A DNA stretch of 64,000 nucleotides from positions 317,254,001 to 317,318,000 of the forward strand of contig OZ024742.1 in NCBI GenBank assembly GCA_964016885.1, in the 5' to 3' direction. The DNA is from Eledone cirrhosa. Lineage: Eukaryota. Positions 2,601-64,000 of this stretch are shown here, in pieces; position 1 is the stretch's first letter, and each line of letters starts with the position of its first letter. The notes under the pieces were generated by a model. That model saw nothing but the letters and a program-made list of their open reading frames with translations. It ran no database searches and was not told the origin of the DNA. Both the position numbers and the translations under genes were made by a program.

Positions 2601-2764
2601 ATACATATATATACAAGTTATATATTAATATATATTATGAACACAAACGTGTTTGTATTGTAAGAGACAAAGTTAGCTAGCATGAAATAAACTAATTAAA
2701 GTGAATACAATTTGTCTGTCTCGATATAAGTCAATAAAGACAAGCTTATATTGGCAAAAGCCGT

Positions 2765-2940
2765 GATTCCTGGACAAATTTAAATTTCAAAATCCAAACC
2801 CGCTCCGTAGATGAATTTGACCTTCGAAACCCAAATATGTTTCGCAACGATGGTACATGAATTGAAAAATAAAGAGAATCGAAATGGAATTGAAATAAAA
2901 AGTGAAATATCCAAATCTTCTGTGCTTATCAACAGGAATC
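2765..2940 (-). ncRNA. Type I hammerhead ribozyme, U3:A8 core variant, intact GAAA
   Basis: Minus strand: GATTCCTG-TTGATAA-GCAC...GTTGC-GAAA-long stem III-GTC-CAGGAATC. Perfect 8-bp stem I and GUC cleavage triplet. Confidence 0.7.
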
Positions 2941-3736
2941 CAGTAAAATTAGTACATTCCACCTTCAAACATTTTGCAGGTCTGATTACACGTGGTGTAG
3001 CCAGCTATACTAGCCATCCCGTATTCCCGGTGCTAGAAATAACAGCCGTTTATACGGGATTAAAGATCAGCTCTACAGTTAAGGAGCAATATACTATATT
3101 ATATTTAGAGATTAAACTCATAGTCGTTTACAATTAATCAGCTCAAAGAAAGAGGCATTTCTGAGCAGTGAAATACAAGTTATATATTAATATATATGAT
3201 CAACACAAACGTGTTTGTATTTCAATTCCATTTCGATTCTCTTTATTTTTCAATTCATGTACCATCGTTGCGAAACATATTTGGGTTTCGAAGTTCAAAT
3301 TCATCTACGGAGCGGGTTTGGATTTTGAAATTTAAATTTGTCCAGGAATCACGGCTTTTGCCAATATAAGCTTGTCTTTATTGACTTATATCGAGACAGA
3401 CAAATTGTATTCACTTTAATTAGTTTATTTCATGCTAGCTAACTTTGTCTCTTACAATACAAACACGTTTGTGTTCATCATATATATTAATATATAACTT
3501 GTATTTCACTGCTCAGAAATGCCTCTTTCTTTGAGCTGATTAATTGTAAACGACTATGAGTTTAATCTCTAAATATAATATAGTATATTGCTCCTTAACT
3601 GTAGAGCTGATCTTTAATCCCGTATAAACGGCTGTTATTTCTAGCACCTGGAATACGGGATGGCTAGTATAGCTGGCTACACCACGTGTAATCAGACCTG
3701 CAAAATGTTTGAAGGTGGAATGTACTAATTTTACTG

Positions 3737-3912
3737 GATTCCTGTTGATAAGCACAGAAGATTTGGATATTTCACTTTTTATTTCAATTCCATTTCGATT
3801 CTCTTTATTTTTCAATTCATGTACCATCGTTGCCCAACATATTTGGGTTTCGAAGTTCAAATTCATCTACGGAGCGGGTTTGGATTTTGAAATTTAAATT
3901 TGTCCAGGAATC
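3737..3912 (+). ncRNA. Hammerhead copy with GAAA changed to CCAA (predicted inactive)
   Basis: Same architecture as 2765-2940, with CCAA at 3834-3837. Confidence 0.65.
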
Positions 3913-4298
3913 ACGGCTTTTGCCAATATAAGCTTGTCTTTATTGACTTATATCGAGACAGACAAATTGTATTCACTTTAATTAGTTTATTTCATGCTAG
4001 CTAACTTTGTCTCTTACAATACAAACACGTTTGTGTTCATCATATATATTAATATATAACTTGTATTTCACTGCTCAGAAATGCCTCTTTCTTTGAGCTG
4101 ATTAATTGTAAACGACTATGAGTTTAATCTCTAAATATAATATAGTATATTGCTCCTTAACTGTAGAGCTGATCTTTAATCCCGTATAAACGGCTGTTAT
4201 TTCTAGCACCTGGAATACGGGATGGCTAGTATAGCTGGCTACACCACGTGTAATCAGACCTGCAAAATGTTTGAAGGTGGAATGTACTAATTTTACTG

Positions 4299-4474
4299 GA
4301 TTCCTGTTGATAAGCACAGAAGATTTGGATATTTCACTTTTTATTTCAATTCCATTTCGATTCTCTTTATTTTTCAATTCATGTACCATCGTTGCCCAAC
4401 ATATTTGGGTTTCGAAGTTCAAATTCATCTACGGAGCGGGTTTGGATTTTGAAATTTAAATTTGTCCAGGAATC
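4299..4474 (+). ncRNA. Hammerhead copy with GAAA changed to CCAA (predicted inactive)
   Basis: Same sequence as 3737-3912, offset by +562. Confidence 0.65.
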
Positions 4475-4860
4475 ACGGCTTTTGCCAATATAAGCTTGTC
4501 TTTATTGACTTATATCGAGACAGACAAATTGTATTCACTTTAATTAGTTTATTTCATGCTAGCTAACTTTGTCTCTTACAATACAAACACGTTTGTGTTC
4601 ATCATATATATTAATATATAACTTGTATTTCACTGCTCAGAAATGCCTCTTTCTTTGAGCTGATTAATTGTAAACGACTATGAGTTTAATCTCTAAATAT
4701 AATATAGTATATTGCTCCTTAACTGTAGAGCTGATCTTTAATCCCGTATAAACGGCTGTTATTTCTAGCACCTGGAATACGGGATGGCTAGTATAGCTGG
4801 CTACACCACGTGTAATCAGACCTGCAAAATGTTTGAAGGTGGAATGTACTAATTTTACTG

Positions 4861-5036
4861 GATTCCTGTTGATAAGCACAGAAGATTTGGATATTTCACT
4901 TTTTATTTCAATTCCATTTCGATTCTCTTTATTTTTCAATTCATGTACCATCGTTGCCCAACATATTTGGGTTTCGAAGTTCAAATTCATCTACGGAGCG
5001 GGTTTGGATTTTGAAATTTAAATTTGTCCAGGAATC
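4861..5036 (+). ncRNA. Hammerhead copy with GAAA changed to CCAA (predicted inactive)
   Basis: Same sequence as 3737-3912, offset by +1124. Confidence 0.65.
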
Positions 5037-5373
5037 ACGGCTTTTGCCAATATAAGCTTGTCTTTATTGACTTATATCGAGACAGACAAATTGTATTCAC
5101 TTTAATTAGTTTATTTCATGCTAGCTAACTTTGTCTCTTACAATACAAACACGTTTGTGTTCATCATATATATTAATATATAACTTGTATTTCACTGCTC
5201 AGAAATGCCTCTTTCTTTGAGCTGATTAATTGTAAACGACTATGAGTTTAATATCTAAATATAATATAGGACATATATATATATATATATATATATAACC
5301 AAATATTAATATGGTTCGTTGATTATTCAACTAATGGAATTTTACAATAGATTAGAAGCACTAGACAGATGGT

Positions 5374-5603
5374 TTATTCAAAATATTAATAAATGAAAAA
5401 TATTCTCTTAATCAAAATATATATTTTATTATACATATTTCAAAGGTACAATGGTGTTTATGTAAGTTTTCATGTCGCATATCAAATCTTATATTTTGTC
5501 TGATGAAAGCGTACTTAAACACCATTGTACCTTTGAAATATGTATAATAAAATATATATTTTGATTATGAGAATATTTTTCATTTATTAATATTTTGAAT
5601 AAT
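5374..5603. repeat. ~100-bp inverted repeat fold-back element, family F2
   Basis: ttattcaaaatattaataaatg...ggtacaatggtgtttatgtaagttttcat (5374-5473) is the near reverse complement of 5503-5603. Confidence 0.85.
5490..5556 (+). ncRNA. Minimal type I hammerhead ribozyme (Penelope-type)
   Basis: TATATTTTGT-CTGATGA-AAGCGTAC..GTACCTTT-GAAA-T-ATGT-ATA-ATAAAATATA: canonical core, 10-bp stem I, 8-bp stem II with one mismatch, AUA cleavage site. Confidence 0.7.
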
Positions 5604-6561
5604 ATATATATAACGGCGATGAATTAGTTTTGCGAGGTTTTTTATATGAAATCGTGTGTCGAAACAAATATTGTTATACTTGGTGAGATGGCGCAGGCAT
5701 ACAATACAACAGGAGGAAACATAATAGCACCACTGACGATGTTGCAGATGTGCAACGAAAGAACTTTGTTAGACTATATATATGTCTTTGCGTCTATATT
5801 ACATCTGTATTTTTGACCGTTGGTCAGTCAATGATAACATTGAGGACCGAATAAATTAAATTAACCGATATAAAAGATAGAGAAGCGAAAACCAACCAAA
5901 CAGTGAGTGTGTTCTGTTATTAATTCTGGCAATATTACACAAATATGACCCTCCCCAAGTATAACAATATATATATATATATATATTTATTAATCACAGT
6001 TGATTGGACCCAGCAATCCACTAAATAAAGTGTAATCCATCATAAGCACTCCACATCATGTGTTCCATAAGGTATTGCGTATGGAATGGCACTACCAACG
6101 CATCTCGCTTACGATCCTCCGGGAAAACACCTTCTCCATTCTCTCTGCCGGGGCTGTGGGGCGTTCAGCACGTGGGACCCCATTTGCTCACTATACAGAG
6201 AAATGGGGGCGATGACGGTGGGAGTTCGGCTCTTCCGTGTTCGGACATATTACACCTGTCATGTAGATCATGTGATAATTTCAGAAAGGTTAAAGCATCT
6301 TTATAGCATCTAATACATTATGTCTATGTTTTACCATTTAAAACCATTTCCTCGTGCATTGCGTATATAGTATCAGACGGAGTATCAATATTAAGAAAGA
6401 AGACGAGAAATGGTTTCACATATTCAACATTAGTTTATTATCCTTACATCACATCTGATATATACATTAAAAATACATTAGAATGCCATTATGTAATAGT
6501 TATTTAATATGTTGTCGGCAAACAGCATTTGAAAATGTAAGCATTATTCTGTCTTTGTTTT

Positions 6562-10570: not shown

Positions 10571-10674
10571 CTATATATATATATATATATAGTAACAATA
10601 AATTTGAAGAGTAAAATCCAAAGAGGTCTCGATAAGGATAAATATATGTCAAATATATAAGAACCGTAGAGCAA

Positions 10675-10773
10675 ATATTTATTAGAATAACAGATTAAAG
10701 TTTCAGAAGATCCCGTTAATGGCGAAAGCAGCGATTCTTTGCTTAAACTTTAATCTGTTATTTTAATAAATAT
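10675..10773. repeat. ~29-bp inverted repeat abutting (TA)n
   Basis: atatttattagaataacagattaaagttt / aaactttaatctgttattttaataaatat. Confidence 0.7.
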
Positions 10774-10786
10774 ATATATATATATA

Positions 10787-13500
<2,714 letters not shown>

Positions 13501-13949: not shown

Positions 13950-14346
<397 letters not shown>

Positions 14347-48274: not shown

Positions 48275-51200
48275 GATGATGAGAAGGGGGAGATGGTGGC
48301 TGAGGTGATGACTACGATGATGGCTATGACAAGATAATGAGAAGGGGGGAGATGGTGGCTGAGGTGATGACTACGATGATGGCTATGACAAGATAATGAG
48401 AAGGGGGGAGATGGTGGCTGAGGTGATGACTACGATGATGGCTATGACATGTTAATGAGAAGGGGGGAGATGGTGGCTGAGGTGATGACTACGATGATGG
48501 CTATGACATGTTAATGAGAAGGGGGATGGTGGCTGAAGTGATGACTACGATGATGGCTATGACAAGATAATGAGAAGGGGGGAGATGGTGGCTGAGGTGA
48601 TGACTACGATAATGGTTATGACAAGATAATGAGAAGGGGGGAGATGGTGGCTGAGGTGATGACTACGATGATGGCTATGACAAGATAATGAGAAGGGGGA
48701 GATGGTGGCTGAGGTGATGACTACGATGATGGCTATGACAAGATAATGAGAAGGGGAGATGGTGGCTGAAGTGATGACTACGATGATGGCTATGACAAGA
48801 TAATGAGAAGGGGGGAGATGGTGGCTGAGGTGATGACTACGATGATGGCTATGACATGTTAATGAGAAGGGGAGATGGTGGCTGAAGTGATGACTACGAT
48901 GATGGCTATGACAAGATAATGAGAAGGGGGAGATGGTGGCTGAGGTGATGACTACGATAATGGTTATGACAAGATAATGAGAAGGGGGGAGATGGTGGCT
49001 GAGGTGATGACTACGATGATGGCTATGACAAGATGATGAGAAGGGGGGAGATGGTGGCTGAGGTGATGACTACGATGATGGCTATGACAAAGGGATGAGA
49101 AGGGGGAGATGGTGGCTGAAGTGATGACTAAGATGATGGCTATGACAAGATGATGAGAGAGGGGGGCCTGAAGTGATGACTAAGATGATGGCTATGACAA
49201 AGGGATGAGAAGGGGGAGATGGTGGCTGAAGTGATGACAAAGATGATGGCTATGACAAGATGATGAGAAGGGGGAGATGGTGGCTGAAGTGATGACTAAG
49301 ATGATGGCTATGACAAGATGATGAGAAGGGGGGATGGTGGCTGAAGTGATGACTAAGATGATGGCTATGACAAGATGATGAGAAGGGGGGATGGTGGCTG
49401 AAGTGATGACTAAGATGATGGCTATGACAAGATGATGAGAAGGGGGGATGGTGGCTGAAGTGATGACTAAGATGATGGCTATGACAAGATGATGAGAAGG
49501 GGGGGGCTGAAGTGATGACTACGATGATGGCTATGACAAAAGGATGAGAAGGGGGGAGATGGTGGCTGAGGTGATGACTACGATAATGGTTATGACAAGA
49601 TAATGAGAAGGGGGGAGATGGTGGCTGAAGTTATGACTACGATGATGGCTATGACAAGATGATGAGAAGGGGGAGATGGTGGCTGAAGTGATGACTACGA
49701 TGATGGTTATGACAAAAGGATGAGAAGGGGGGAGATGGTGGCTGAGGTGATGACTACGATGATGGCTATGACAAGATGATGAGAAGGGGGGATATGGTGG
49801 CTGAGGTGATGACTAACATGATGGCTATGACAAGATGATGTGAAGGGTGGAGATGGTGGCTGAGGTGATGACTAGCATGATGGCTATGACAAGATGATGA
49901 GAAGGGGGGAGATGGTGGCTGAGGTGATGACTACGATGATGGCTATGACAAAGGGATGAGAAGGGGGGAGATGGTGGCTGAAGTGATGACTACGATGAAG
50001 GCTATGACAAAAGGATGAGAAGGGGGGAGATGGTGGCTGAGGTGATGACTACGATGATGGCTATGACAAAGGGATGAGAAGGGGGGAGATGGTGGCTGAA
50101 GTGATGACTACGATGATGGCTATGACATGTTAATGAGAAGGGGGAGATGGTGGCTGAGGTGATGACTACGATGATGGCTATGACAAGATGATGAGAAGGG
50201 GGGAGATGGTGGCTGAGGTGATGACTACGATGATGGCTATGACAAAGGGATGAGAAGGGGGGAGATGGTGGCTGAAGTGATGACTACGATGATGGCTATG
50301 ACATGTTAATGAGAAGGGGGGAGATGGTGGCTGAGGTGATGACTACGATGATGGCTATGACAAGATAATGAGAAGGGGGGAGATGGTGGCTGAGGTGATG
50401 ACTACGATGATGGCTATGACATGTTAATGAGAAGGGGGATGGTGGCTGAAGTGATGACTACGATGATGGCTATGACAAGATAATGAGAAGGGGGGAGATG
50501 GTGGCTGAGGTGATGACTACGATAATGGTTATGACAAGATAATGAGAAGGGGGGAGATGGTGGCTGAGGTGATGACTACGATGATGGCTATGACAAGATA
50601 ATGAGAAGGGGGAGATGGTGGCTGAGGTGATGACTACGATGATGGCTATGACAAGATAATGAGAAGGGGAGATGGTGGCTGAAGTGATGACTACGATGAT
50701 GGCTATGACAAGATAATGAGAAGGGGGGAGATGGTGGCTGAGGTGATGACTACGATGATGGCTATGACATGTTAATGAGAAGGGGAGATGGTGGCTGAAG
50801 TGATGACTACGATGATGGCTATGACAAGATAATGAGAAGGGGGAGATGGTGGCTGAGGTGATGACTACGATAATGGTTATGACAAGATAATGAGAAGGGG
50901 GGAGATGGTGGCTGAGGTGATGACTACGATAATGGTTATGACAAGATAATGAGAAGGGGGGAGATGGTGGCTGAGGTGATGACTACGATGATGGCTATGA
51001 CAAGATAATGAGAAGGAGGAGATGGTGGCTGAGGGGATGACTACGATGATGGCTATGACAAGATAATGAGAAGGGGAGATGGTGGCTGAGTGATGACTAC
51101 GATGATGGCTATGACAAGATAATGAGAAGGGGGGAGATGGTGGCTGAGGTGATGACTACGATGATGGCTATGACATGTTAATGAGAAGGGGAGATGGTGG

Positions 51201-54200
51201 CTGAGGTGATGACTACGATGATGGCTATGACAAGATAATGAGAAGGGGGAGATGGTGGCTGAGGTGATGACTACGATAATGGTTATGACAAGATAATGAG
51301 AAGGGGGGAGATGGTGGCTGAGGTGATGACTACGAAGAGGGCTATGACAAGATGATGAGAAGGGGGGAGATGGTGGCTGAGGTGATGACTACGATGATGG
51401 CTATGACAAAGGGATGAGAAGGGGGAGATGGTGGCTGAAGTGATGACTAAGATGATGGCTATGACAAGATGATGAGAAGGGGGGGGCTGAAGTGATGACT
51501 AAGATGATGGCTATGACAAAGGGATGAGAAGGGGGAGATGGTGGCTGAAGTGATGACAAAGATGATGGCTATGACAAGATGATGAGAAGGGGGAGATGGT
51601 GGCTGAAGTGATGACTAAGATGATGGCTATGACAAGATGATGAGAAGGGGGGATGGTGGCTGAAGTGATAACTAAGATGATGGCTATGACAAGATGATGA
51701 GAAGGGGGAGATGGTGGCTGAAGTTATGACTACGATGATGGCTATGACAAGATGATGAGAAGGGGGAGATGGTGGCTGAAGTGATGACTACGATGATGGC
51801 TATGACAAGATGATGAGAAGGGGGGATATGGTGGCTGAGGTGATGACTAACATGATGGCTATGACAAGATGATGTGAAGGGTCGAGATGGTGGCTGAGGT
51901 GATGACTAAAATGATGGCTATGACAAGATGATGAGAAGGGGGAGATGGTGGCTGAGGTGATGACTACGATGATGGCTATGACAAAGGGATGAGAAGGGGG
52001 GAGATGGTGGCTGAAGTGATGACTACGATGAAAGCTATGACAAAAGGATGAGAAGGGGGGAGATGGTGGCTGAGGTGATGACTACGATGATGGCTATGAC
52101 AAAGGGATGAGAAGGGGGGAGATGGTGACTGAAGTGATGACTACGATGATGGCTATGACATGTTAATGAGAAGGGGGGAGATGGTGGCTGAGGTGATGAC
52201 TACGATGATGGCTATGACAAGATGATGAGAAGGGGGGAGATGGTGGCTGAGGTGATGACTACGATGATGGCTATGACAAAGGGATGAGAAGGGGGGAGAT
52301 GGTGGCTGAAGTGATGACTACGATGATGGCTATGACATGTTAATGAGAAGGGTGGAGATGGTGGCTGAGGTGATGACTACGATGATGGCTATGACAAGAT
52401 GATGAGAAGGGGGGAGATGGTGGCTGAGGTGATGACTACGATGATGGCTATGACAAAGGGATGAGAAGGGGGGAGATGGTGGCTGAAGTGATGACTACGA
52501 TGATGGCTATGACATGTTAATGAGAAGGGGGGAGATGGTGGCTGAGGTGATGACTACGATGATGGCTATGACAAGATGATGAGAAGGGGGGAGATGGTGG
52601 CTGAGGTGATGACTACGATGATGGCTATGACAAAGGGATGAGAAGGGGGGAGATGGTGGCTGAAGTGATGACTACCATGATGGCTATGACATGTTAATGA
52701 GAAGGGGGGAGATGGTGGCTGAGGTGATGACTACGATGATGGCTATGACAAGATGATGAGAAGGGGGGAGATGGTGGCTGAGGTGATGACTACGATGATG
52801 GCTCTGACAAAGGGATGAGAAGGGGGGAGATGGTGGCTGAAGTGATGACTACGATGATGGCTATGACATGTTAATGAGAAGGGGGGAGATGGTGGCTGAG
52901 GTGATGACTACGATGATGGCTATGACAAGATGATGATAAGGGGGGAGATGGTGGCTGAGGTGATGACTACGATGATGGCTATGACAAAGGGATGAGAAGG
53001 GGGAGATGGTGGCTGAAGTGATGACTACGATAATGGTTATGACAAGATAATGAGAAGGGGGGAGATGGTGGCTGAGGTGATGACTACGATGATGGCTATG
53101 ACAAGATGATGATAAGGGGGGAGATGGTGGCTGAGGTGATGACTACGATAATGGTTATGACAAGATAATGAGAAGGGGGGAGATGGTGGCTGAGGTGATG
53201 ACTACGATAATGGTTATGACAAGATAATGAGAAGGGGGGAGATGGTGGCTGAGGTGATGACTACGATGATGGCTATGACAAGATAATGAGAAGGAGGAGA
53301 TGGTGGCTGAGGGGATGACTACGATGATGGCTATGACAAGATAATGAGAAGGGGAGATGGTGGCTGAGTGATGACTACGATGATGGCTATGACAAGATAA
53401 TGAGAAGGGGGGAGATGGTGGCTGAGGTGATGACTACGATGATGGCTATGACATGTTAATGAGAAGGGGAGATGGTGGCTGAGGTGATGACTACGATGAT
53501 GGCTATGACAAGATAATGAGAAGGGGGAGATGGTGGCTGAGGTGATGACTACGATAATGGTTATGACAAGATAATGAGAAGGGGGGAGATGGTGGCTGAG
53601 GTGATGACTACGAAGAGGGCTATGACAAGATGATGAGAAGGGGGGAGATGGTGGCTGAGGTGATGACTACGATGATGGCTATGACAAAGGGATGAGAAGG
53701 GGGAGATGGTGGCTGAAGTGATGACTAAGATGATGGCTATGACAAGATGATGAGAAGGGGGGGGCTGAAGTGATGACTAAGATGATGGCTATGACAAAGG
53801 GATGAGAAGGGGGAGATGGTGGCTGAAGTGATGACAAAGATGATGGCTATGACAAGATGATGAGAAGGGGGAGATGGTGGCTGAAGTGATGACTAAGATG
53901 ATGGCTATGACAAGATGATGAGAAGGGGGGATGGTGGCTGAAGTGATGACTAAGATGATGGCTATGACAAGATGATGAGAAGGGGGAGATGGTGGCTGAA
54001 GTTATGACTACGATGATGGCTATGACAAGATGATGAGAAGGGGGAGATGGTGGCTGAAGTGATGACTACGATGATGGCTATGACAAGATGATGAGAAGGG
54101 GGGATATGGTGGCTGAGGTGATGACTAACATGATGGCTATGACAAGATGATGTGAAGGGTCGAGATGGTGGCTGAGGTGATGACTAAAATGATGGCTATG

Positions 54201-57200
54201 ACAAGATGATGAGAAGGGGGAGATGGTGGCTGAGGTGATGACTACGATGATGGCTATGACAAAGGGATGAGAAGGGGGGAGATGGTGGCTGAAGTGATGA
54301 CTACGATGAAAGCTATGACAAAAGGATGAGAAGGGGGGAGATGGTGGCTGAGGTGATGACTACGATGATGGCTATGACAAAGGGATGAGAAGGGGGGAGA
54401 TGGTGACTGAAGTGATGACTACGATGATGGCTATGACATGTTAATGAGAAGGGGGGAGATGGTGGCTGAGGTGATGACTACGATGATGGCTATGACAAGA
54501 TGATGAGAAGGGGGGAGATGGTGGCTGAGGTGATGACTACGATGATGGCTATGACAAAGGGATGAGAAGGGGGGAGATGGTGGCTGAAGTGATGACTACG
54601 ATGATGGCTATGACATGTTAATGAGAAGGGGGGAGATGGTGGCTGAGGTGATGACTACGATGATGGCTATGACAAGATGATGAGAAGGGGGGAGATGGTG
54701 GCTGAGGTGATGACTACGATGATGGCTATGACAAAGGGATGAGAAGGGGGGAGATGGTGGCTGAAGTGATGACTACGATGATGGCTATGACATGTTAATG
54801 AGAAGGGGGGAGATGGTGGCTGAGGTGATGACTACGATGATGGCTATGACAAGATGATGAGAAGGGGGGAGATGGTGGCTGAGGTGATGACTACGATGAT
54901 GGCTATGACAAAGGGATGAGAAGGGGGGAGATGGTGGCTGAAGTGATGACTACCATGATGGCTATGACATGTTAATGAGAAGGGGGGAGATGGTGGCTGA
55001 GGTGATGACTACGATGATGGCTATGACAAGATGATGAGAAGGGGGGAGATGGTGGCTGAGGTGATGACTACGATGATGGCTCTGACAAAGGGATGAGAAG
55101 GGGGGAGATGGTGGCTGAAGTGATGACTACGATGATGGCTATGACATGTTAATGAGAAGGGGGGAGATGGTGGCTGAGGTGATGACTACGATGATGGCTA
55201 TGACAAGATGATGATAAGGGGGGAGATGGTGGCTGACGTGATGACTACGATGATGGCTATGACAAAGGGATGAGAAGGGGGAGATGGTGGCTGAAGTGAT
55301 GACTACGATGAAGGCTATGACAAAAGGATGAGAAGGGGGGAGATGGTGGCTGAGGTGATGACTACGATGATGGCTATGACAAAGGGATGAGAAGGGGGAG
55401 ATGGTGGCTGAAGTGATGACTACGATGATGGCTATGACAAAAGGATGAGAAGCGGGGAGATGGTGGCTGAGGTGATGACTACGATGAAGGCTGTGACAAA
55501 AGGATGAGAAGGGGGAGATGGTGGCTGAGGTAATGACTACGATGATGGCTATGACAAAAGGATGAGAAGGGGGGAGATGGTGGCTGAGGTGATGACTACG
55601 ATGATGGCTATGACAAAAGGATAAGAAAGGGGAGATGGTGGCTGAGGTGATGACTACGATGATGGCTATGACAAAAGGATGAGAAGGGGGGAGATGGTGG
55701 CTGAGGTGATGACTACGATGATGGCTATGACAAAAGGATGAGAAAGGGGAGATGGTGGCTGAGGTGATGACTACGATGATGGCTATGACAAGATGATTAG
55801 AAGGGGCGATATGGTGGCTGAGGTGATGACTAAAATGATGGCTATGACAAGATGATGAGAAGGGGGAGATGGTGGCTGAGGTGATGACTACGATGATGGC
55901 TATGACAAGATGATTAGAAGGGGCGATATGGTGGCTGAGGTGATGACTAAAATGATGGCTATGACAAGATGATGAGAAGGGGGAGATGGTGGCTGAGGTG
56001 ATGACTACGATGATGGCTATGACAAGATGATGAGAAGGGGGAGATGGTGGCTGAGGTGATCACTGCGATGATGGCTATGACAAAAGTATGAGAAGGGAGC
56101 AGATGGTGGCTGAAGTGATGACTACGATGATTGCTATGACAAAAGGATGAGAAGGGGGAGATGATGGCTGAAGTGATGACTACGATGATTGCTATGACTT
56201 AAGGATGTGAAGGGGGGATATGGTGGCTGAAGTGATGACTACGATGATTGCTATGACAAAACGATGAAAAGGGGGGATATGGTGGCTGAAGTGATGACTA
56301 CGATGATTGCTATGACAAAGGGATGTGAAGGGAGGAGATGGTGGCTGAAGTGATGACTACGATGATTGCTATGACTTAAGGATGAGAAGGGAGGTGATGG
56401 TGGCTGAAGTGATGACTGATTATTGCTATGACAAAGGGATGAGAAGGGGGGAGATGGTGGCTGAGGTGATGACTACGATGATGGCTATGACAAAGGGAGG
56501 AGAAGGGGGATATGGTGGCTGAAGTGATGACTACGATGATTGCTATGACAAAAGGATGTGAAGGGAGGAGATGGTGGCTGAAGTGATGACTACGATGATT
56601 GCTATGACTTAAGGATGTGAAGGGAGGAGATGGTGGCTGAAGTGATGACTACGATGATGGCTATGACAAAAGGATGAGAAGGGAGGAGATGGTGGCTGAA
56701 GTGATGACTACGATGATTGCTATGACAAAAGGATGAGAAGGGGGGAGATGGTGGCTGGATTGATGACTATGATGATTGCTATGACAAAAGGATGAGAAGG
56801 GGGGATATGGTGGCTGAAGTGATGACTACGATGATGGCTATGATAAAAGGATGAGAAGGGAGGAGATGGTGGCTGAAGTGATGACTATGATGATTGCTAT
56901 GACAAAAGGATGAGAAGGGAGGAGATGGTGGCTGAAGTGATGACTAAGATGATGGCTATGACAAGATGATGAGAAGGGGGGATGGTGGCTGAAGTGATGA
57001 CTAAGATGATGGCTATGACAAGATGATGAGAAGAGGGAGATGGTGGCTGAAGTGATGACTACGATGATTGTTATGACAAAAGGATGAGAAGGGAGGAGAT
57101 GGTGGCTGAAGTGATGACTACGATGATTGCTATGACTTAAGGATGTGAAGGGAGGAGATGGTGGCTGAAGTGATGACTACGATGATTGCTATGACTTAAG

Positions 57201-60200
57201 GATGTGAAGGGAGGAGATAGTGGCTGAAGTGTTGACTACGATGATTGCTATGACTTAAGGATGTGAAGGGAGGAGATGGTGGCTGAAGTGATGACTACGA
57301 TGATGGCTATGACAAAAGGATGTGAAGGGAGGAGATGGTGGCTGAAGTGATGACTACGATGATTGCTATGACTTAAGGATGTGAAGGGGGGATATGGTGG
57401 CTGAAGTGATGACTATGATGATTGCTATGACAAAAGGATGAGAAGAGAGGAGATGGTGGCTGAAGTGATGACTACGATGATTGCTATGACTTAAGGATGT
57501 GAAGGGAGGAGATGGTGGCTGAAGTGATGACTACGATGATGGCTATGACTTAAGGATGTGAAGGGAGGAGATGGTGGCTGAAGTGATGACTACGATGATG
57601 GCTATGACAAAAGGATGTGAAGGGAGGAGATGGTGGCTGAAGTGATGACTACGATGATTGCTATGACTTAAGGATGTGAAGGGGGGATATGGTGGCTGAA
57701 GTGATGACTACGATGATGGCTATGACAAAACGATGATAAGGGAGGAGATGGTGGCTGAAGTGATGACTACGATGATGGCTATGACAAAACGATGAGAAGG
57801 GAGGAGATGGTGGCTGAAGTGATGACTACGACGATTGCTATGACAAAAGGATGAGAAGGGAGGAGATGGTGGCTGAAGTGATGACTACGATGATGGCTAT
57901 GACTTAAGGATGTGAAGGGGGATATGGTGGCTTAAATGTTGACTACGATGATTGCTATGACTTAAGGATGTGAAGGGAGGAGATGGTGGCTGAAGTGATG
58001 ACTACGATGATGGCTATGACTTAAGGATGTGAACGGAGGAGATGGTGGCTGAAGTGATGACTACGATTATTGCTATGACTTAAGGATGTGAAGGGAGGAG
58101 ATGGTGGCTGAGGTGATGACTACGATGATGGCTATGACATGTTAATGAGAAGGGGAGATGGTGGCTGAAGTGATGACTACGATGATGGCTATGACAAGAT
58201 AATGAGAAGGGGGGAGATGGTGGCTGAGGTGATGACTACGATAATGGTTATGACAAGATAATGAGAAGGGGGGAGATGGTGGCTGAGGTGATGACTACGA
58301 TGATGGCTATGACAAGATGATGAGAAGGGGGGAGATGGTGGCTGAGGTGATGACTACGATGATGGCTATGACAAAGGGATGAGAAGGGGGAGATGGTGGC
58401 TGAAGTGATGACTAAGATGATGGCTATGACAAGATGATGAGAAGGGGGGGGATGGTGGCTGAAGTGATGACTAAGATGATGGCTATGACAAAGGGATGAG
58501 AAGGGAGAGATGGTGGCTGAAGTGATGACAAAGATGATGGCTATGACAAGATGATGAGAAGGGGGAGATGGTGGCTGAAGTGATGACTAAGATGATGGCT
58601 ATGACAAGATGATGAGAAGGGGGGATGGTGGCTGAAGTGATGACTAAGATGATGGCTATGACAAAATGATGAGAAGGGGGAGATGGTGGCTGAAGTTATG
58701 ACTACGATGATGGCTATGACAAGATGATGAGAAGGGGGAGATGGTGGCTGAAGTGATGACTACGATGATGGCTATGACAAGATGATGAGAAAGGGGGATA
58801 TGGTGGCTGAGGTGATGACTAACATGATGGCTATGACAAGATGATGTGAAGGGTGGAGATGGTGGCTGAGGTGATGACTACGATGATGGCTATGACAAAG
58901 GGATGAGAAGGGGGGAGATGGTGGCTGAAGTGATGACTACGATGAAGGCTATGACAAAAGGATGAGAAGGGGGGAGATGGTGCCTGAGGTGATGACTACG
59001 ATGAAGGCTATGACAAAAGGATGAGAAGGGGGAGATGGTGGCTGAGGTGATGACTACGATGATGGCTATGACAAAAGGATGAGAAGGGGGGAGATGGTGG
59101 CTGAGGTGATGACTACGATGATGACTATGACAAAAGGATGAGAAAGGGGAGATGGTGGCTGAGGTGATGACTACGATGATGGCTATGACAAAAGGATAAG
59201 AAGGGGGGAGATGGTGGCTGAGGTGATGACTACGATGATGGCTATGACAAGATGATGTGAAGGGTGGAGGTGGTGGCTGAGGTGATGACTACGATGATTG
59301 CTATGACTTAAGGATGTGAAGGGAGGAGATGGTGGCTGAAGTGATGACTACGATGATGGCTATGACAAGATGATTAGAAGGGGGAGATGGTGGCTGAGGT
59401 GATGACTACGATGATGGCTATGACAAGATGATGAGAAGGAGGAGATGGTGGCTGAGGTGATGACTACGATGATGGCTATGACAAAAGGATGAGAAGGGAG
59501 GAGATGGTGGCTGAAGTGATGACTACGATGATTGCTATGACAAAAGGATGAGAAGGGGGAGATGGTGGCTGAAGTGATGACTACGATGATTGCTATCACT
59601 TAAGGATTTGAAGGGGGGATATGGTGGCTGAAGTGATGACTACGATGATTGCTATGACAAAACGATGAAAAGGGGCGATATGGTGGCTGAAGTGATGACT
59701 ACGATGATTGCTATGACAAAGGGATGTGAAGGGAGGAGATGGTGGCTGAAGTGATGACTACGATGATTGCTATGACTTAAGGATGAGAAGGGAGGTGATG
59801 GTGGCTGAAGTGATGACTATGATGATTGCTATGACAAAGGGATGAGAAGGGGGGAGATGGTGGCTGAGGCGATGACTACGATGATGGCTATGACAAAGGG
59901 AGGAGAAGGGGGATATGGTGGCTGAAGTGATGACTACGATGATTGCTATGACAAAAGGATGTGAAGGGAGGAGATGGTGGCTGAAGTGATGACTACGATG
60001 ATTGCTATGACTTAAGGATGTGAAGGGAGGAGATGGTGGCTGAAGTGATGACTACGATGATGGCTATGACAAAAGGATGAGAAGGGAGGAGATGGTGGCT
60101 GAAGTGATGACTACGATGATTGCTATGACAAAAGGATGAGAAGGGGGGAGATGGTGGCTGGATTGATGACTATGATGATTGCTATGACAAAAGGATGAGA

Positions 60201-63200
60201 AGGGAGGAGATGGTGGCTGAAGTGATGACTATGATGATTGCTATGACAAAAGGATGAGAAGGGAGGAGATGGTGGCTGATGTGATGACTAAGATGATGGC
60301 TATGACAAGATGATGAGAAGGGGGGATGGTGGCTGAAGTGATGACTAAGATGATGGCTATGACAAGATGATGAGAAGGGGGAGATGGTGGCTGAAGTGAT
60401 GACTACGATGATTGCTATGACAAAAGGATGAGAAGGGAGGAGATGGTGGCTGAAGTGATGACTACGATGATTGCTATGACTTAAGGATGTGAAGGGAGGA
60501 GATGGTGGCTGAAGTGATGACTACGATGATTGCTATGACTTAAGGATGTGAAGGGAGGAGATAGTGGCTGAAGTGATGACTACGATGATTGCTATGACTT
60601 AAGGATGTGAAGGGAGGAGATGGTGGCTGAAGTGATGACTACGATGATGGCTATGACAAAAGGATGTGAAGGGAGGAGATGGTGGCTGAAGTGATGACTA
60701 CGATGATTGCTATGACTTAAGGATGTGAAGGGGGGATATGGTGGCTGAAGTGATGACTACGATGATTGCTATGACAAAAGGATGAGAAGAGAGGAGATGG
60801 TGGCTGAAGTGATGACTACGATGATTGCTATGACTTAAGGATGTGAAGGGAGGAGATGGTGGCTGAAGTGATGACTACGATGATGGCTATGACTTAAGGA
60901 TGTGAAGGGAGGAGATGGTGGCTGAAGTGATGACTACGATGATGGCTATGACAAAAGGATGTGAAGGGAGGAGATGGTGGCTGAAGTGATGACTACGATG
61001 ATTGCTATGACTTAAGGATGTGAAGGGGGGATATGGTGGCTGAAGTGATGACTACGATGATGGCTATGACAAAACGATGAGAAGGGAGGAGATGGTGGCT
61101 GAAGTGATGACTACGATGATGGCTATGACAAAACGATGAGAAGGGAGGAGATGGTGGCTGAAGTGATGACTACGACGATTGCTATGACAAAAGGATGAGA
61201 AGGGAGGAGATGGTGGCTGAAGTGATGACTACGATGATGGCTATGACTTAAGGATGTGAAGGGAGATATGGTGGCTGAAATGATGACTACGATGATTGCT
61301 ATGACTTAAGGATGTGAAGGGAGGATATGGTGGCTGAAGTGATGACTACGATGATGGCTATGACTTAAGGATGTGAAGGGAGGAGATGGTGGCTGAAGTG
61401 ATGACTACGATGATGGCTATGACTTAAGGATGTGAAGGGAGGAGATGGTGGCTGAAGTGATGACTACTATGATTGCTATGACTTAAGGATGTGAAGGGAG
61501 GAGATGGTGGCTGAAGTGATGACTACGATGATTGCTATGACTTAAGGATGTGAAGGGAGGAGATGGTGGCTGAAGTGATGACTACGATGATTGCTATGAC
61601 TTAAGGATGTGAAGGGAGGAGATGGTGGCTGAAGTGATGACTACGATGATTGCTATGACTTAAGGATGTGAAGGGGGGATATGGTGGCTGAAATGATGAC
61701 TACGATGATTGCTATGACTTAAGGATGTGAAGGGAGGAGATGGTGGCTGAAGTGATGACTACGATGATTGCTATGACTTAAGGATGTGAAGGGAGGAGAT
61801 GGTGGCTGAAGTGATGACTACGATGATGGCTATGACTTAAGGATGTGAAGGGGGGATATGGTGGCTGAAGTGATGACTACGATGATTGCTATGACTTAAG
61901 GATGTGAAGGGAGGAGATGGTGGCTGAAGTGATGACTACGATGATGGCTATGACTTAAGGATGTGAAGGGAGGAGATGGTGGCTGAAGTGATGACTACGA
62001 TGATGGCTATGACTTAAGGATGTGAAGGGAGGAGATGGTGGCTGAAGTGATGACTACGATGATTGCTATGACAAAAGGATGAGAAGGGGGGAGATGGTGG
62101 CTGGATTGATGACTATGATGATTGCTATGACAAAAGGATGAGAAGGGAGGAGATGGTGGCTGAAGTGATGACTATGATGATTGCTATGACAAAAGGATGA
62201 GAAGGGAGGAGATGGTGGCTGAAGTGATGACGACGATGATGGCTATGACAAGATGATGAGAAAGGGGGATATGGTGGCTGAGGTGATGACTAACATGATG
62301 GCTATGACAAGATGATGTGAAGGGTGGAGATGGTGGCTGAGGTGATGACTACGATGATGGCTATGACAAAGGGATGAGAAGGGGGGAGATGGTGGCTGAA
62401 GTGATGACTACGATGAAGGCTATGACAAAAGGATGAGAAGGGGGGAGATGGTGCCTGAGGTGATGACTACGATGAAGGCTATGACAAAAGGATGAGAAGG
62501 GGGAGATGGTGGCTGAGGTGATGACTACGATGATGGCTATGACAAAAGGATGAGAAGGGGGGAGATGGTGGCTGAGGTGATGACTACGATGATGACTATG
62601 ACAAAAGGATGAGAAAGGGGAGATGGTGGCTGAGGTGATGACTACGATGATGGCTATGACAAAAGGATAAGAAGGGGGGAGATGGTGGCTGAGGTGATGA
62701 CTACGATGATGGCTATGACAAGATGATGTGAAGGGTGGAGGTGGTGGCTGAGGTGATGACTACGATGATTGCTATGACTTAAGGATGTGAAGGGAGGAGA
62801 TGGTGGCTGAAGTGATGACTACGATGATGGCTATGACAAGATGATTAGAAGGGGGAGATGGTGGCTGAGGTGATGACTACGATGATGGCTATGACAAGAT
62901 GATGAGAAGGAGGAGATGGTGGCTGAGGTGATGACTACGATGATGGCTATGACAAAAGGATGAGAAGGGAGGAGATGGTGGCTGAAGTGATGACTACGAT
63001 GATTGCTATGACAAAAGGATGAGAAGGGGGAGATGGTGGCTGAAGTGATGACTACGATGATTGCTATCACTTAAGGATTTGAAGGGGGGATATGGTGGCT
63101 GAAGTGATGACTACGATGATTGCTATGACAAAACGATGAAAAGGGGCGATATGGTGGCTGAAGTGATGACTACGATGATTGCTATGACAAAGGGATGTGA

Positions 63201-64000
63201 AGGGAGGAGATGGTGGCTGAAGTGATGACTACGATGATTGCTATGACTTAAGGATGAGAAGGGAGGTGATGGTGGCTGAAGTGATGACTATGATGATTAC
63301 TATGACAAAGGCATGAGAAGGGGGGAGATGGTGGCTGAGGCGATGACTACGATGATGGCTATGACAAAGGGAGGAGAAGGGGGATATGGTGGCTGAAGTG
63401 ATGACTACGATGATTGCTATGACAAAAGGATGTGAAGGGAGGAGATGGTGGCTGAAGTGATGACTACGATGATTGCTATGACTTAAGGATGTGAAGGGAG
63501 GAGATGGTGGCTGAAGTGATGACTACGATGATGGCTATGACAAAAGGATGAGAAGGGAGGAGATGGTGGCTGAAGTGATGACTACGATGATTGCTATGAC
63601 AAAAGGATGAGAAGGGGGGAGATGGTGGCTGGATTGATGACTATGATGATTGCTATGACAAAAGGATGAGAAGGGAGGAGATGGTGGCTGAAGTGATGAC
63701 TATGATGATTGCTATGACAAAAGGATGAGAAGGGAGGAGATGGTGGCTGAAGTGATGACTAAGATGATGGCTATGACAAGATGATGAGAAGGGGGGATGG
63801 TGGCTGAAGTGATGACTAAGATGATGGCTATGACAAGATGATGAGAAGGGGGAGATGGTGGCTGAAGTGATGACTACGATGATTGCTATGACAAAAGGAT
63901 GAGAAGGGAGGAGATGGTGGCTGAAGTGATGACTACGATGATTGCTATGACTTAAGGATGTGAAGGGAGGAGATGGTGGCTGAAGTGATGACTACGATGA
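48275..64000. repeat. 58-59-bp satellite array, >15.7 kb (~270 monomers), running off the window
   Basis: Monomer gagaagggggg-agatggtggctga(g/a)gtgatgactacgatgat(g/t)gctatgac-(aagat/aaaag/ttaag/atgtt)-(a/g)at. Length varies mainly in the G-run. Confidence 0.98.

Follow-up and report, generated by a model that had tools for sequence, protein, structure and literature searches.

In the window analyzed here, that is, the whole 64,000-nt stretch of Eledone cirrhosa DNA, a 562-bp repeat with ~590 copies in the (TA)n-rich genome can be drawn, on one strand, as a hammerhead ribozyme with a U3:A8 core pair and a very long stem III. This locus raises the question whether the repeat is a self-cleaving mobile element and, if so, which enzyme copies it. 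We conclude, at a probability of roughly 0.7, that the repeat is a non-autonomous Penelope-like element, or non-LTR retrozyme, that is likely self-cleaving and likely copied by a reverse transcriptase-endonuclease of the Hydra clade.

The repeat and its hammerhead motif

Between 2940 and 2765 on the minus strand, the motif reads, in the 5' to 3' order, GATTCCTG, UUGAUAA, GCA, a 76-nt loop, UGC, GAAA, stem III, GUC, and CAGGAATC, with an 8-bp stem I formed by GATTCCTG/CAGGAATC, in agreement with the type I core consensus (Y3-U4-G5-A6-N7-R8-A9, G12-A13-A14, A15.1-U16.1, H17, and three stems; Table 1). The 8-bp stem I, TTGATAA, the GCA/TGC base of stem II, GAAA and GTC, all named in a preliminary description of this DNA, are present here, and cleavage is predicted to occur after GUC, between 2773 and 2772. 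Stem III of this copy includes 17 Watson-Crick pairs, 8 G-U, 1 U-U and 1 G-A, compared to 18 Watson-Crick, 8 G-U and 1 U-U in typical young copies; our recount agrees with the hand count made earlier, the one extra mismatch of this copy being the G-A. The wobbles are one-sided (8 G-U vs 0 A-C, p = 0.008), as expected under the earlier proposal that they work on one strand only and reflect selection on RNA, and the tree test described below points the same way.

Table 1 Features of the locus (positions in the window)
Feature	Position	Strand	Remarks
Left arm	2611..3221	-	611 nt; unit positions 290-562, then 1-338; short 3' end by TA-rich flank
Intact type I hammerhead motif	2765..2940	-	Stems I, II, III and core
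Stem III	2775..2839; arms 2839-2813 and 2801-2775	-	27-position hairpin
G12-A13-A14-A15.1 (GAAA)	2840..2843 (2843-2840)	-	Intact here
Loop II	2847..2922	-	76 nt, U-rich; enclosed by stem II base GCA/UGC
Core U3-U4-G5-A6-U7-A8-A9 (UUGAUAA)	2926..2932 (2932-2926)	-	U3:A8
Post-tail stem GCUC...GAGC	3070..3087	-	Directly 3' of long end; matches Hydra-A post-tail stem
Tail stem GCUC...GAGC	3141..3166	-	6 nt 3' of short end
Right arm	3214..5269	+	2056 nt; 562-bp tandem units; long 3' end before (TA)n
Hammerhead 3' half	3214..3350	+	GAAA intact; without 5' core
CCAA hammerhead copy	3737..3912	+	CC at 3834-3835 replacing G12-A13; predicted inactive
Second identical CCAA copy	4299..4474	+	Predicted inactive
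Third identical CCAA copy	4861..5036	+	Predicted inactive
Terminal tail	5191..5269	+	Between short and long 3' ends; this end only
(TA)n target microsatellite	5273..5297	.	At long end

The two arms of the insertion are joined head-to-head, with an overlap of 8 nt, and the minus-strand copy is the only complete hammerhead of this locus. The motif had been described as seen in each full unit, which does not hold: the three full units on the plus strand read TGC-CCAA-C, not GAAA, that is, they carry G12C and A13C, and are otherwise identical. Among the 78 insertions of the youngest subfamily, the CCAA form was found in a single one, and it was absent from the first 100 of the 271 pattern matches listed. 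Given this rarity, the change likely arose at this locus once the element had inserted and spread to the tandem units by duplication at the DNA level; the three identical units may instead be an assembly duplication. Tandem intact copies are found at other loci (for example, L008, L026 and L028).

The longest ATG-initiated ORF in the 562-bp unit is 108 aa, an ORF for a reverse transcriptase with a GIY-YIG domain is absent from the unit, and no ORF-bearing member of the family was found among the loci examined. As judged from its sequence, the repeat has the traits by which a non-LTR retrozyme can be recognized, namely, a non-coding unit of a few hundred bp, one type I hammerhead, and tandem copies. 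These observations support the early assignment to non-coding, retrozyme-like repeats that CUGANGA-based descriptors miss, and the Rfam models miss it as well: no hammerhead was reported for the window by either gathering score or E-value, and given that none was reported either for five comparison loci with sister or Hydra hammerheads, the blank for the window is uninformative.

The core pattern gave 594 exact matches in the genome, compared to 0 for the control, and among the 100 listed of the 594, the core letters were UUGAUAA in 97 and UCGAUAA in 2, with 1 unrelated sequence. The best copies are 98-100% alike and spread over many contigs; contigs under two other organism labels cover the hammerhead as well (219 nt with 3 differences and 147 nt with 1 difference), so that the family, hereafter family A, is not confined to this assembly. 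Three sister families with homologous 3' regions and canonical cores were found beside Penelope ORFs: family B (L114; core CUGAGGA; 2686 first-look candidates), family C (L109; core CUGAGGA, GUA cut site; 1322 first-look candidates), and family D (L094 type; core CUGAAGA, 5-bp stem III; 3321 first-look candidates). The units of A, B and D are 58-75% identical. A search for a canonical C3:G8 core with the flanks of family A yielded 3 matches vs 2 for the control, all unrelated.

Beyond the repeat, the window contains near-identical tRNA-like sequences at 10875-10945 (minus strand) and 14242-14312 (plus strand), with Rfam scores of 39 and 41 bits, which are likely the heads of a tRNA-derived repeat. 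Several LINE copies, first direct and then inverted, that end in (ATT)n and encode a zinc-knuckle ORF1, an AP endonuclease and a reverse transcriptase occupy 24500-46400, and a G-rich 59-bp satellite with a strong strand skew (269 copies, 92% matches) extends from 48278 to 64000.

Insertion ends and the candidate mobilizer

The 3' ends of the arms are fixed at unit position 338 (short) or 422 (long), 84 nt apart, with (TA)n following nearly all of them, whereas the 5' ends vary. A census of all 97 exact tail matches, which under-samples short+short pairs, yielded 78 insertions of the youngest subfamily; 52 of these are head-to-head with both ends visible, and include 45 long+short pairs, 7 of long+other, and 0 of long+long. 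A set of 51 insertions picked by their hammerheads, which partly overlaps the census, consists of 27 long+short, 1 short+short, 7 with one other end, and 16 single. One insertion that is short+short and two that are long+long are the exceptions to this end rule (L012, L159, L203). The rule of one short and one long end extends to the sister families: 18 of the 20 pairs are long+short in family B and 10 of 15 in D, and in family C, where the tail is 66 nt, the ends are ~66 nt apart in 14 of 20 pairs.

A pile-up of 5' ends at the cut site, a genomic sign of cleavage, was not found: just 2 of 140 arms start within 5 nt of it. Given that these are so few and that 76 of the 140 arms run through the cut site, the usual template does not appear to be a cut linear monomer and would rather be an uncut multimer or a circle. 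In 6 of 48 two-arm insertions, both arms begin at an identical 5' coordinate, which would be compatible with one RNA having been copied twice. The repeat displays the insertion traits of Penelope-like elements, that is, 5'-truncated partial tandems, an inverted 5'-truncated arm, two fixed 3' ends and a microsatellite target; an inverted arm with a one-sided tail is described for such elements in PMC8557442, and for a purified anole Penelope-like protein, two internal start sites that correspond to the tail are reported (PMC11167929).

Similar structures occur nearby. One is a small element with inverted arms at window 5374-5602, whose hammerhead at 5500 (plus strand) is of the canonical CUGAUGA type and whose family recurs in many of the loci examined. 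More (TA)n-flanked inverted-arm repeats, together with a CUGAAGA motif, are located at 1159-1305, 2442-2600, 5612-5970 and 7114. Penelope-type elements appear to be nested side by side in the same microsatellites.

Among the Penelope families examined, the autonomous element that most closely resembles the repeat in its ends is Hydra-A (L313/P0001), which has a 713-aa ORF with the RWK-like motif RWR, together with DKT, the linker motif CxCX5C, CxxC and CxH. The element was placed in the Hydra clade by these motifs, following the definition in PMC8557442; a Pfam search detected no family in the protein. Copies of Hydra-A are 96-99% identical, inserted in (TA)n, and carry a hammerhead with the core CAGAAGA. 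Its 3' ends are 88 nt apart, with GCUC located 4 nt after each, and among 43 loci there are 11 long+short pairs, 2 of long+other, and 0 of like with like. Hydra-A and families A-D alike have one GCUC...GAGC stem starting 4-6 nt after the short end and another one starting 1-5 nt after the long end; the stem at 3141..3166 is predicted to be the signal for the first start of reverse transcription. The Hydra-A post-tail 17-mer, with up to 2 mismatches allowed, has 3 matches among 2.57 million positions in other loci: two of these lie in copies of Hydra-A, and the third is the post-tail stem of L069, a basal member of family A, which is identical to Hydra-A at 16 of 17 nt (the window's own post-tail stem matches less well). 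Profile searches of the whole unit against Hydra-A gave no match at a useful score, so that only the post-tail stem and the layout agree. Taken together, these features make Hydra-A or a close relative the probable mobilizer. A 180-bp Hydra-A insertion in (TA)n is present in the window itself (10592-10770), where an inverted long-end arm joined to a short-end arm with a CAGAAGA hammerhead displays the long/short rule in miniature.

Our survey of potential partners covered 50 of the 150 listed GIY-YIG places and two Hydra families. Neptune/Poseidon-like families have no tail in common with the repeat among the 50 GIY-YIG loci, and L107 is a separate non-coding relative located beside an ORF, with (TA)n in between. 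The second Hydra family, Hydra-B, is even younger, has an 830-aa ORF that is 46% identical to that of Hydra-A, and was rejected as the partner given its 137-nt tail and the lack of any profile match to the tail or the post-tail element. In the Hydra-B loci (L329-L360), the C-terminal 230 aa are fully identical in at least 55 places, with a tandem unit of ~7 kb, and the family is apparently active now. A 3' fragment of Hydra-B lies in the window at 11146-11500 on the minus strand, with the short end before (TA)n.

The repeat could nevertheless be moved by some other Penelope-like family (Hydra-B, another Hydra, or Neptune/Poseidon) or by several of them, which we consider rather unlikely albeit the most serious of the alternatives. 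Three arms of the repeat run directly, without a change of strand, into the 3' part of an autonomous Penelope-like element, which is Hydra-B at L024/L326/L361, another Hydra-type fragment at L023/L325, and an element outside the Hydra clade at L226/L327. Moreover, the 10,596 GIY-YIG and ~75,000 Hydra-like first-look candidates were examined in small part. The joins, however, may be either template switches or later insertions, in the latter case into AT-rich parts of the arms, the mismatch of the Hydra-B tail applies here too, and among the families examined, tail length, twin stems and the 17-mer are common to Hydra-A only. Hydra-A or a close relative thus remains our preferred candidate. Neither the Penelope-type anatomy of the insertions nor this candidate partner had figured in the preliminary description.

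Evolution and folding of the hammerhead

For the covariation analysis, we aligned 30 hammerheads picked from 96 distinct ones. Changes on both sides of a pair were observed in 5 of the 8 pairs of stem I and 2 of the 3 pairs of stem II as well as at 3:8, counts that are lowered by one row (L069) sitting one column off; position 3:8 is U-A in 17 of the 30 rows and C-G in 13. In stem III, 16 of 28 pairs show one-sided variation only. Overall, 94.1% of the alignment cells pair, compared to 14-55% when the alignment is slid. Because relatives share changes, we also built a tree of 74 full monomers (69 from families A, B and C, and 5 outgroup sequences), on which pairing was retained in 22 of 26 stem III changes on internal branches vs 21 of 43 at tips (p = 0.004). 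Stem III is under selection for pairing, on one strand.

On the same tree, the change to U3:A8 took place once, on the branch leading to family A, rather than 30 times independently. Given the canonical CUGANGA cores of the sister families, with C3:G8 in B, C and D, and the covarying stem I, U3:A8 represents one compensatory switch; the preliminary description had already called the pair compensatory. It had also treated this pair as unusual, for which there is little reason: U3:A8 is a natural, active covariation (Perreault et al. 2011, PMC3088659) that is reported in ~1,300 Schistosoma Penelope hammerheads (PMC4209133). Further motifs at L092, L159 and L315 resemble hammerheads with a UUGAUAA core but have different stems, which suggests that U3:A8 arose more than once in this genome.

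Among the 69 monomers, G5, A9, A15.1 and U16.1 are invariant, and A6, G12, A13 and A14 vary at single tips only, although 230 of the 510 columns are equally constant. Private mutations in young copies are evenly distributed (0.6% in the core and 0.7-1.1% in other regions), as expected with decay after insertion and selection acting on source lineages. Across the relatives, the length of stem III forms a series, from 5 bp in family D, through ~6 and ~10 bp in two families nested in L238 (core CAGAAGA), to 26-27 bp in A, B and C. U4C recurs in families A and D, and U4A is found in the L238 families; for a viroid, the U4C variant has been described as viable although weaker (PMC3088659). Loop II ranges from ~30 to 76 nt across the relatives. 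The loop of ~75 nt, to which importance was originally attached, is only ~36 nt in older members of family A, and the 76-nt form is a late expansion within this family.

More distant non-coding families (L107:40-1500, L033:2288-2700, L155:1056-1450, L015:899-1259, L133, L241, L268) share the tail or the post-tail stems, and most have a hammerhead of their own. They represent a large uncatalogued radiation.

Folding bore out the favored strand and gave a mixed picture of the complete hammerhead. The minus-strand motif folds better than the plus strand (z -1.84, with 13 of 200 shuffles as stable, vs z -0.11), and the whole 562-bp unit yields z -4.0 (0 of 100 shuffles); taken by itself, this is a modest signal, and the comparative evidence above is much stronger. 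In this copy, stems I and III do form but stem II is absent from the minimum-energy fold (first-pair probability 0.006), compared to which the hammerhead fold is less stable by 2.4 kcal/mol.

This weak stem II invites an alternative in which the element is the same but the ribozyme of the young subfamily is weak or vestigial, such that U3:A8 and the 76-nt loop cripple cleavage, the hairpin persists because it stabilizes the RNA or binds a protein, and uncut transcripts transpose. The drop in stem II probability from 0.31 in a short-loop member to 0.006 here fits this explanation, as do the lack of a 5'-end pile-up at the cut site and the in vitro insertion by the anole protein, which is reported as unaffected by ribozyme mutants (PMC11167929); 8 of 9 Xenopus retrozyme dimers reported without cleavage in vitro (Li et al. 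2026, 10.64898/2026.07.22.740005) also count against self-cleavage. However, the canonical families perform equally poorly in the same folding model (0.01 in B and 0.00 in C), core positions 5, 6, 9, 12-15.1 and 16.1 are unchanged on internal branches for the 69 monomers, and the CCAA change, which is predicted to inactivate, is private to this locus. We therefore regard a vestigial ribozyme as unlikely, and a likely self-cleaving element as the better explanation.

Octopuses edit RNA heavily, and the G-U richness of stem III might accordingly be a footprint of A-to-I editing that was fixed as A-to-G at reverse transcription. In 6 of the 8 G-U pairs, relatives have A-U instead, and A>G changes exceed T>C on internal branches (64 vs 51, p = 0.014 after allowing for base composition; 35 vs 43 at tips). 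Pairing selection alone, however, would accept A>G and reject T>C in A-U pairs and explains the bias equally well; in stem III itself, the counts are 10 A>G vs 7 G>A, and young copies show no A>G excess among private changes (20 vs 41 T>C). Editing as the source of the G-U pairs is speculative and appears quite improbable next to pairing selection. Finally, the hammerhead-like pattern could have come about by chance in a satellite or foldback repeat that spreads at the DNA level, to which the three identical plus-strand units with a private core change (pointing to local DNA duplication) and the absence of an Rfam match might be attributed. This explanation is already contradicted by the covariation in stem I, stem II and 3:8, the invariant core, the one-strand G-U bias, and the dispersal of copies whose 5' ends vary while their 3' ends are fixed, and has a negligible chance of being correct.

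Precedents, proposed mechanism and implications

Non-LTR retrozymes have been argued to be non-autonomous Penelope-like elements (Li et al. 2026). The animal representatives, as described by Cervera and de la Pena (2020, PMC7229834) and Li et al. (2026), resemble the repeat in having non-coding, GC-poor units in tandem, each with a single type I hammerhead, and a highly self-paired predicted circle, and in their proposed derivation from Penelope-like elements. The 562-bp unit compares with ~170-400 nt in PMC7229834 and 51-972 bp in 10.64898/2026.07.22.740005. The repeat differs in its ~27-bp stem III, vs 1-2 bp typical of animal retrozymes, and in its occurrence mostly as 1-2 units in inverted arms, vs the long arrays of animal retrozymes; it is known here from DNA alone.

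With the Hydra clade, as described by Craig et al. (2021, PMC8557442), the repeat shares (TA)n targets, partial tandems, an inverted 5'-truncated arm, a one-ended tail, and a hammerhead near the 3' end, but it lacks an ORF, and only a short stem can be aligned with Hydra-A. The 84-nt tail exceeds the 30-40 bp described there for Penelope-like elements. The supplement of the same paper gives Hydra-1_Obim for Octopus bimaculoides and lists octopus Hydra and Naiad elements with (TA)n targets. In the account of PAc, a Poseidon element of the green anole (Frangieh et al. 2024, PMC11167929), two internal start sites likewise define the tail, both strands are nicked and extended, and the template is not cut by the ribozyme. 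PAc, however, starts in an AC-rich stem-loop without target homology, whereas here both ends have short TA matches to the target, each just 5' of a GCUC/GAGC stem.

Helix III is given as 1-2 bp in most animal hammerheads and as large in fungal and protist Penelope hammerheads (PMC4209133). The U3:A8 hammerheads and those of Penelope-like elements with a large helix III offer parallels for the compensatory core pair and for a long stem III that permits monomer folding, respectively, but in contrast to these precedents, both features are found together here in one animal, along with a graded stem III series and U4C/U4A relatives. In a literature search that covered largely open-access papers and the main texts of preprints, no account of this family or of an animal retrozyme with a long stem III was listed. 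The novelty lies in a long stem III under selection in an animal, as part of a graded series, in the link to Hydra, and in an end rule based on twin stems; every ingredient has precedent, and the family is a useful variant of the non-LTR retrozymes, not a new class.

We propose the following mechanism. Tandem or read-through transcripts would be cut after GUC into 562-nt monomers, as known hammerhead chemistry implies, and the monomers may circularize, as suggested by work on retrozymes (PMC7229834). With its long stem III, a single ribozyme would be able to fold on its own, without dimerization, and G-U pairs would be tolerated provided that pairing is kept. A dimer of the borrowed protein would then bind the two GCUC/GAGC stems of an uncut multimer or circle, not of a cut linear monomer, and nick both strands of (TA)n. 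One cDNA would be primed 4-6 nt upstream of the first stem, producing the short end, and the other one 1-5 nt upstream of the second stem, producing the long end, in both cases through short UA/TA matches. Priming by a dimer at two stem-defined sites is suggested by the end rule together with the anole data (PMC11167929).

More tentatively, and as a possibility against which the odds still lean, all these observations could be read jointly as a radiation of non-coding retrozymes that parasitizes Hydra-clade Penelope elements via a two-stem address, with each hairpin positioning one protomer of the reverse transcriptase-endonuclease dimer such that every insertion acquires one short and one long end. 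In one branch of this radiation, a G-U-rich stem III would have grown stepwise from 5 to 27 bp and, with the U3:A8 switch, yielded a ribozyme that is active as a monomer, perhaps with a contribution of A-to-I editing.

This family bears on how Penelope-like elements acquire their inverted arms and tails and on what their hammerheads do. The autonomous mover of animal retrozymes has so far been argued from co-occurrence and pLTR trees; here, a retrozyme and its candidate mover can be named from a single genome, the ends follow a nearly strict rule, and there are two RNA stems that are small and can be mutated. It also provides a natural hammerhead series missed by Rfam, with stem III of 5, 6, 10 and 27 bp, loop II of ~30-76 nt, C3:G8 or U3:A8, and U4, C4 or A4. 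If the proposed mechanism is true, the 562-nt RNA would be a minimal natural substrate with which to dissect Penelope integration.
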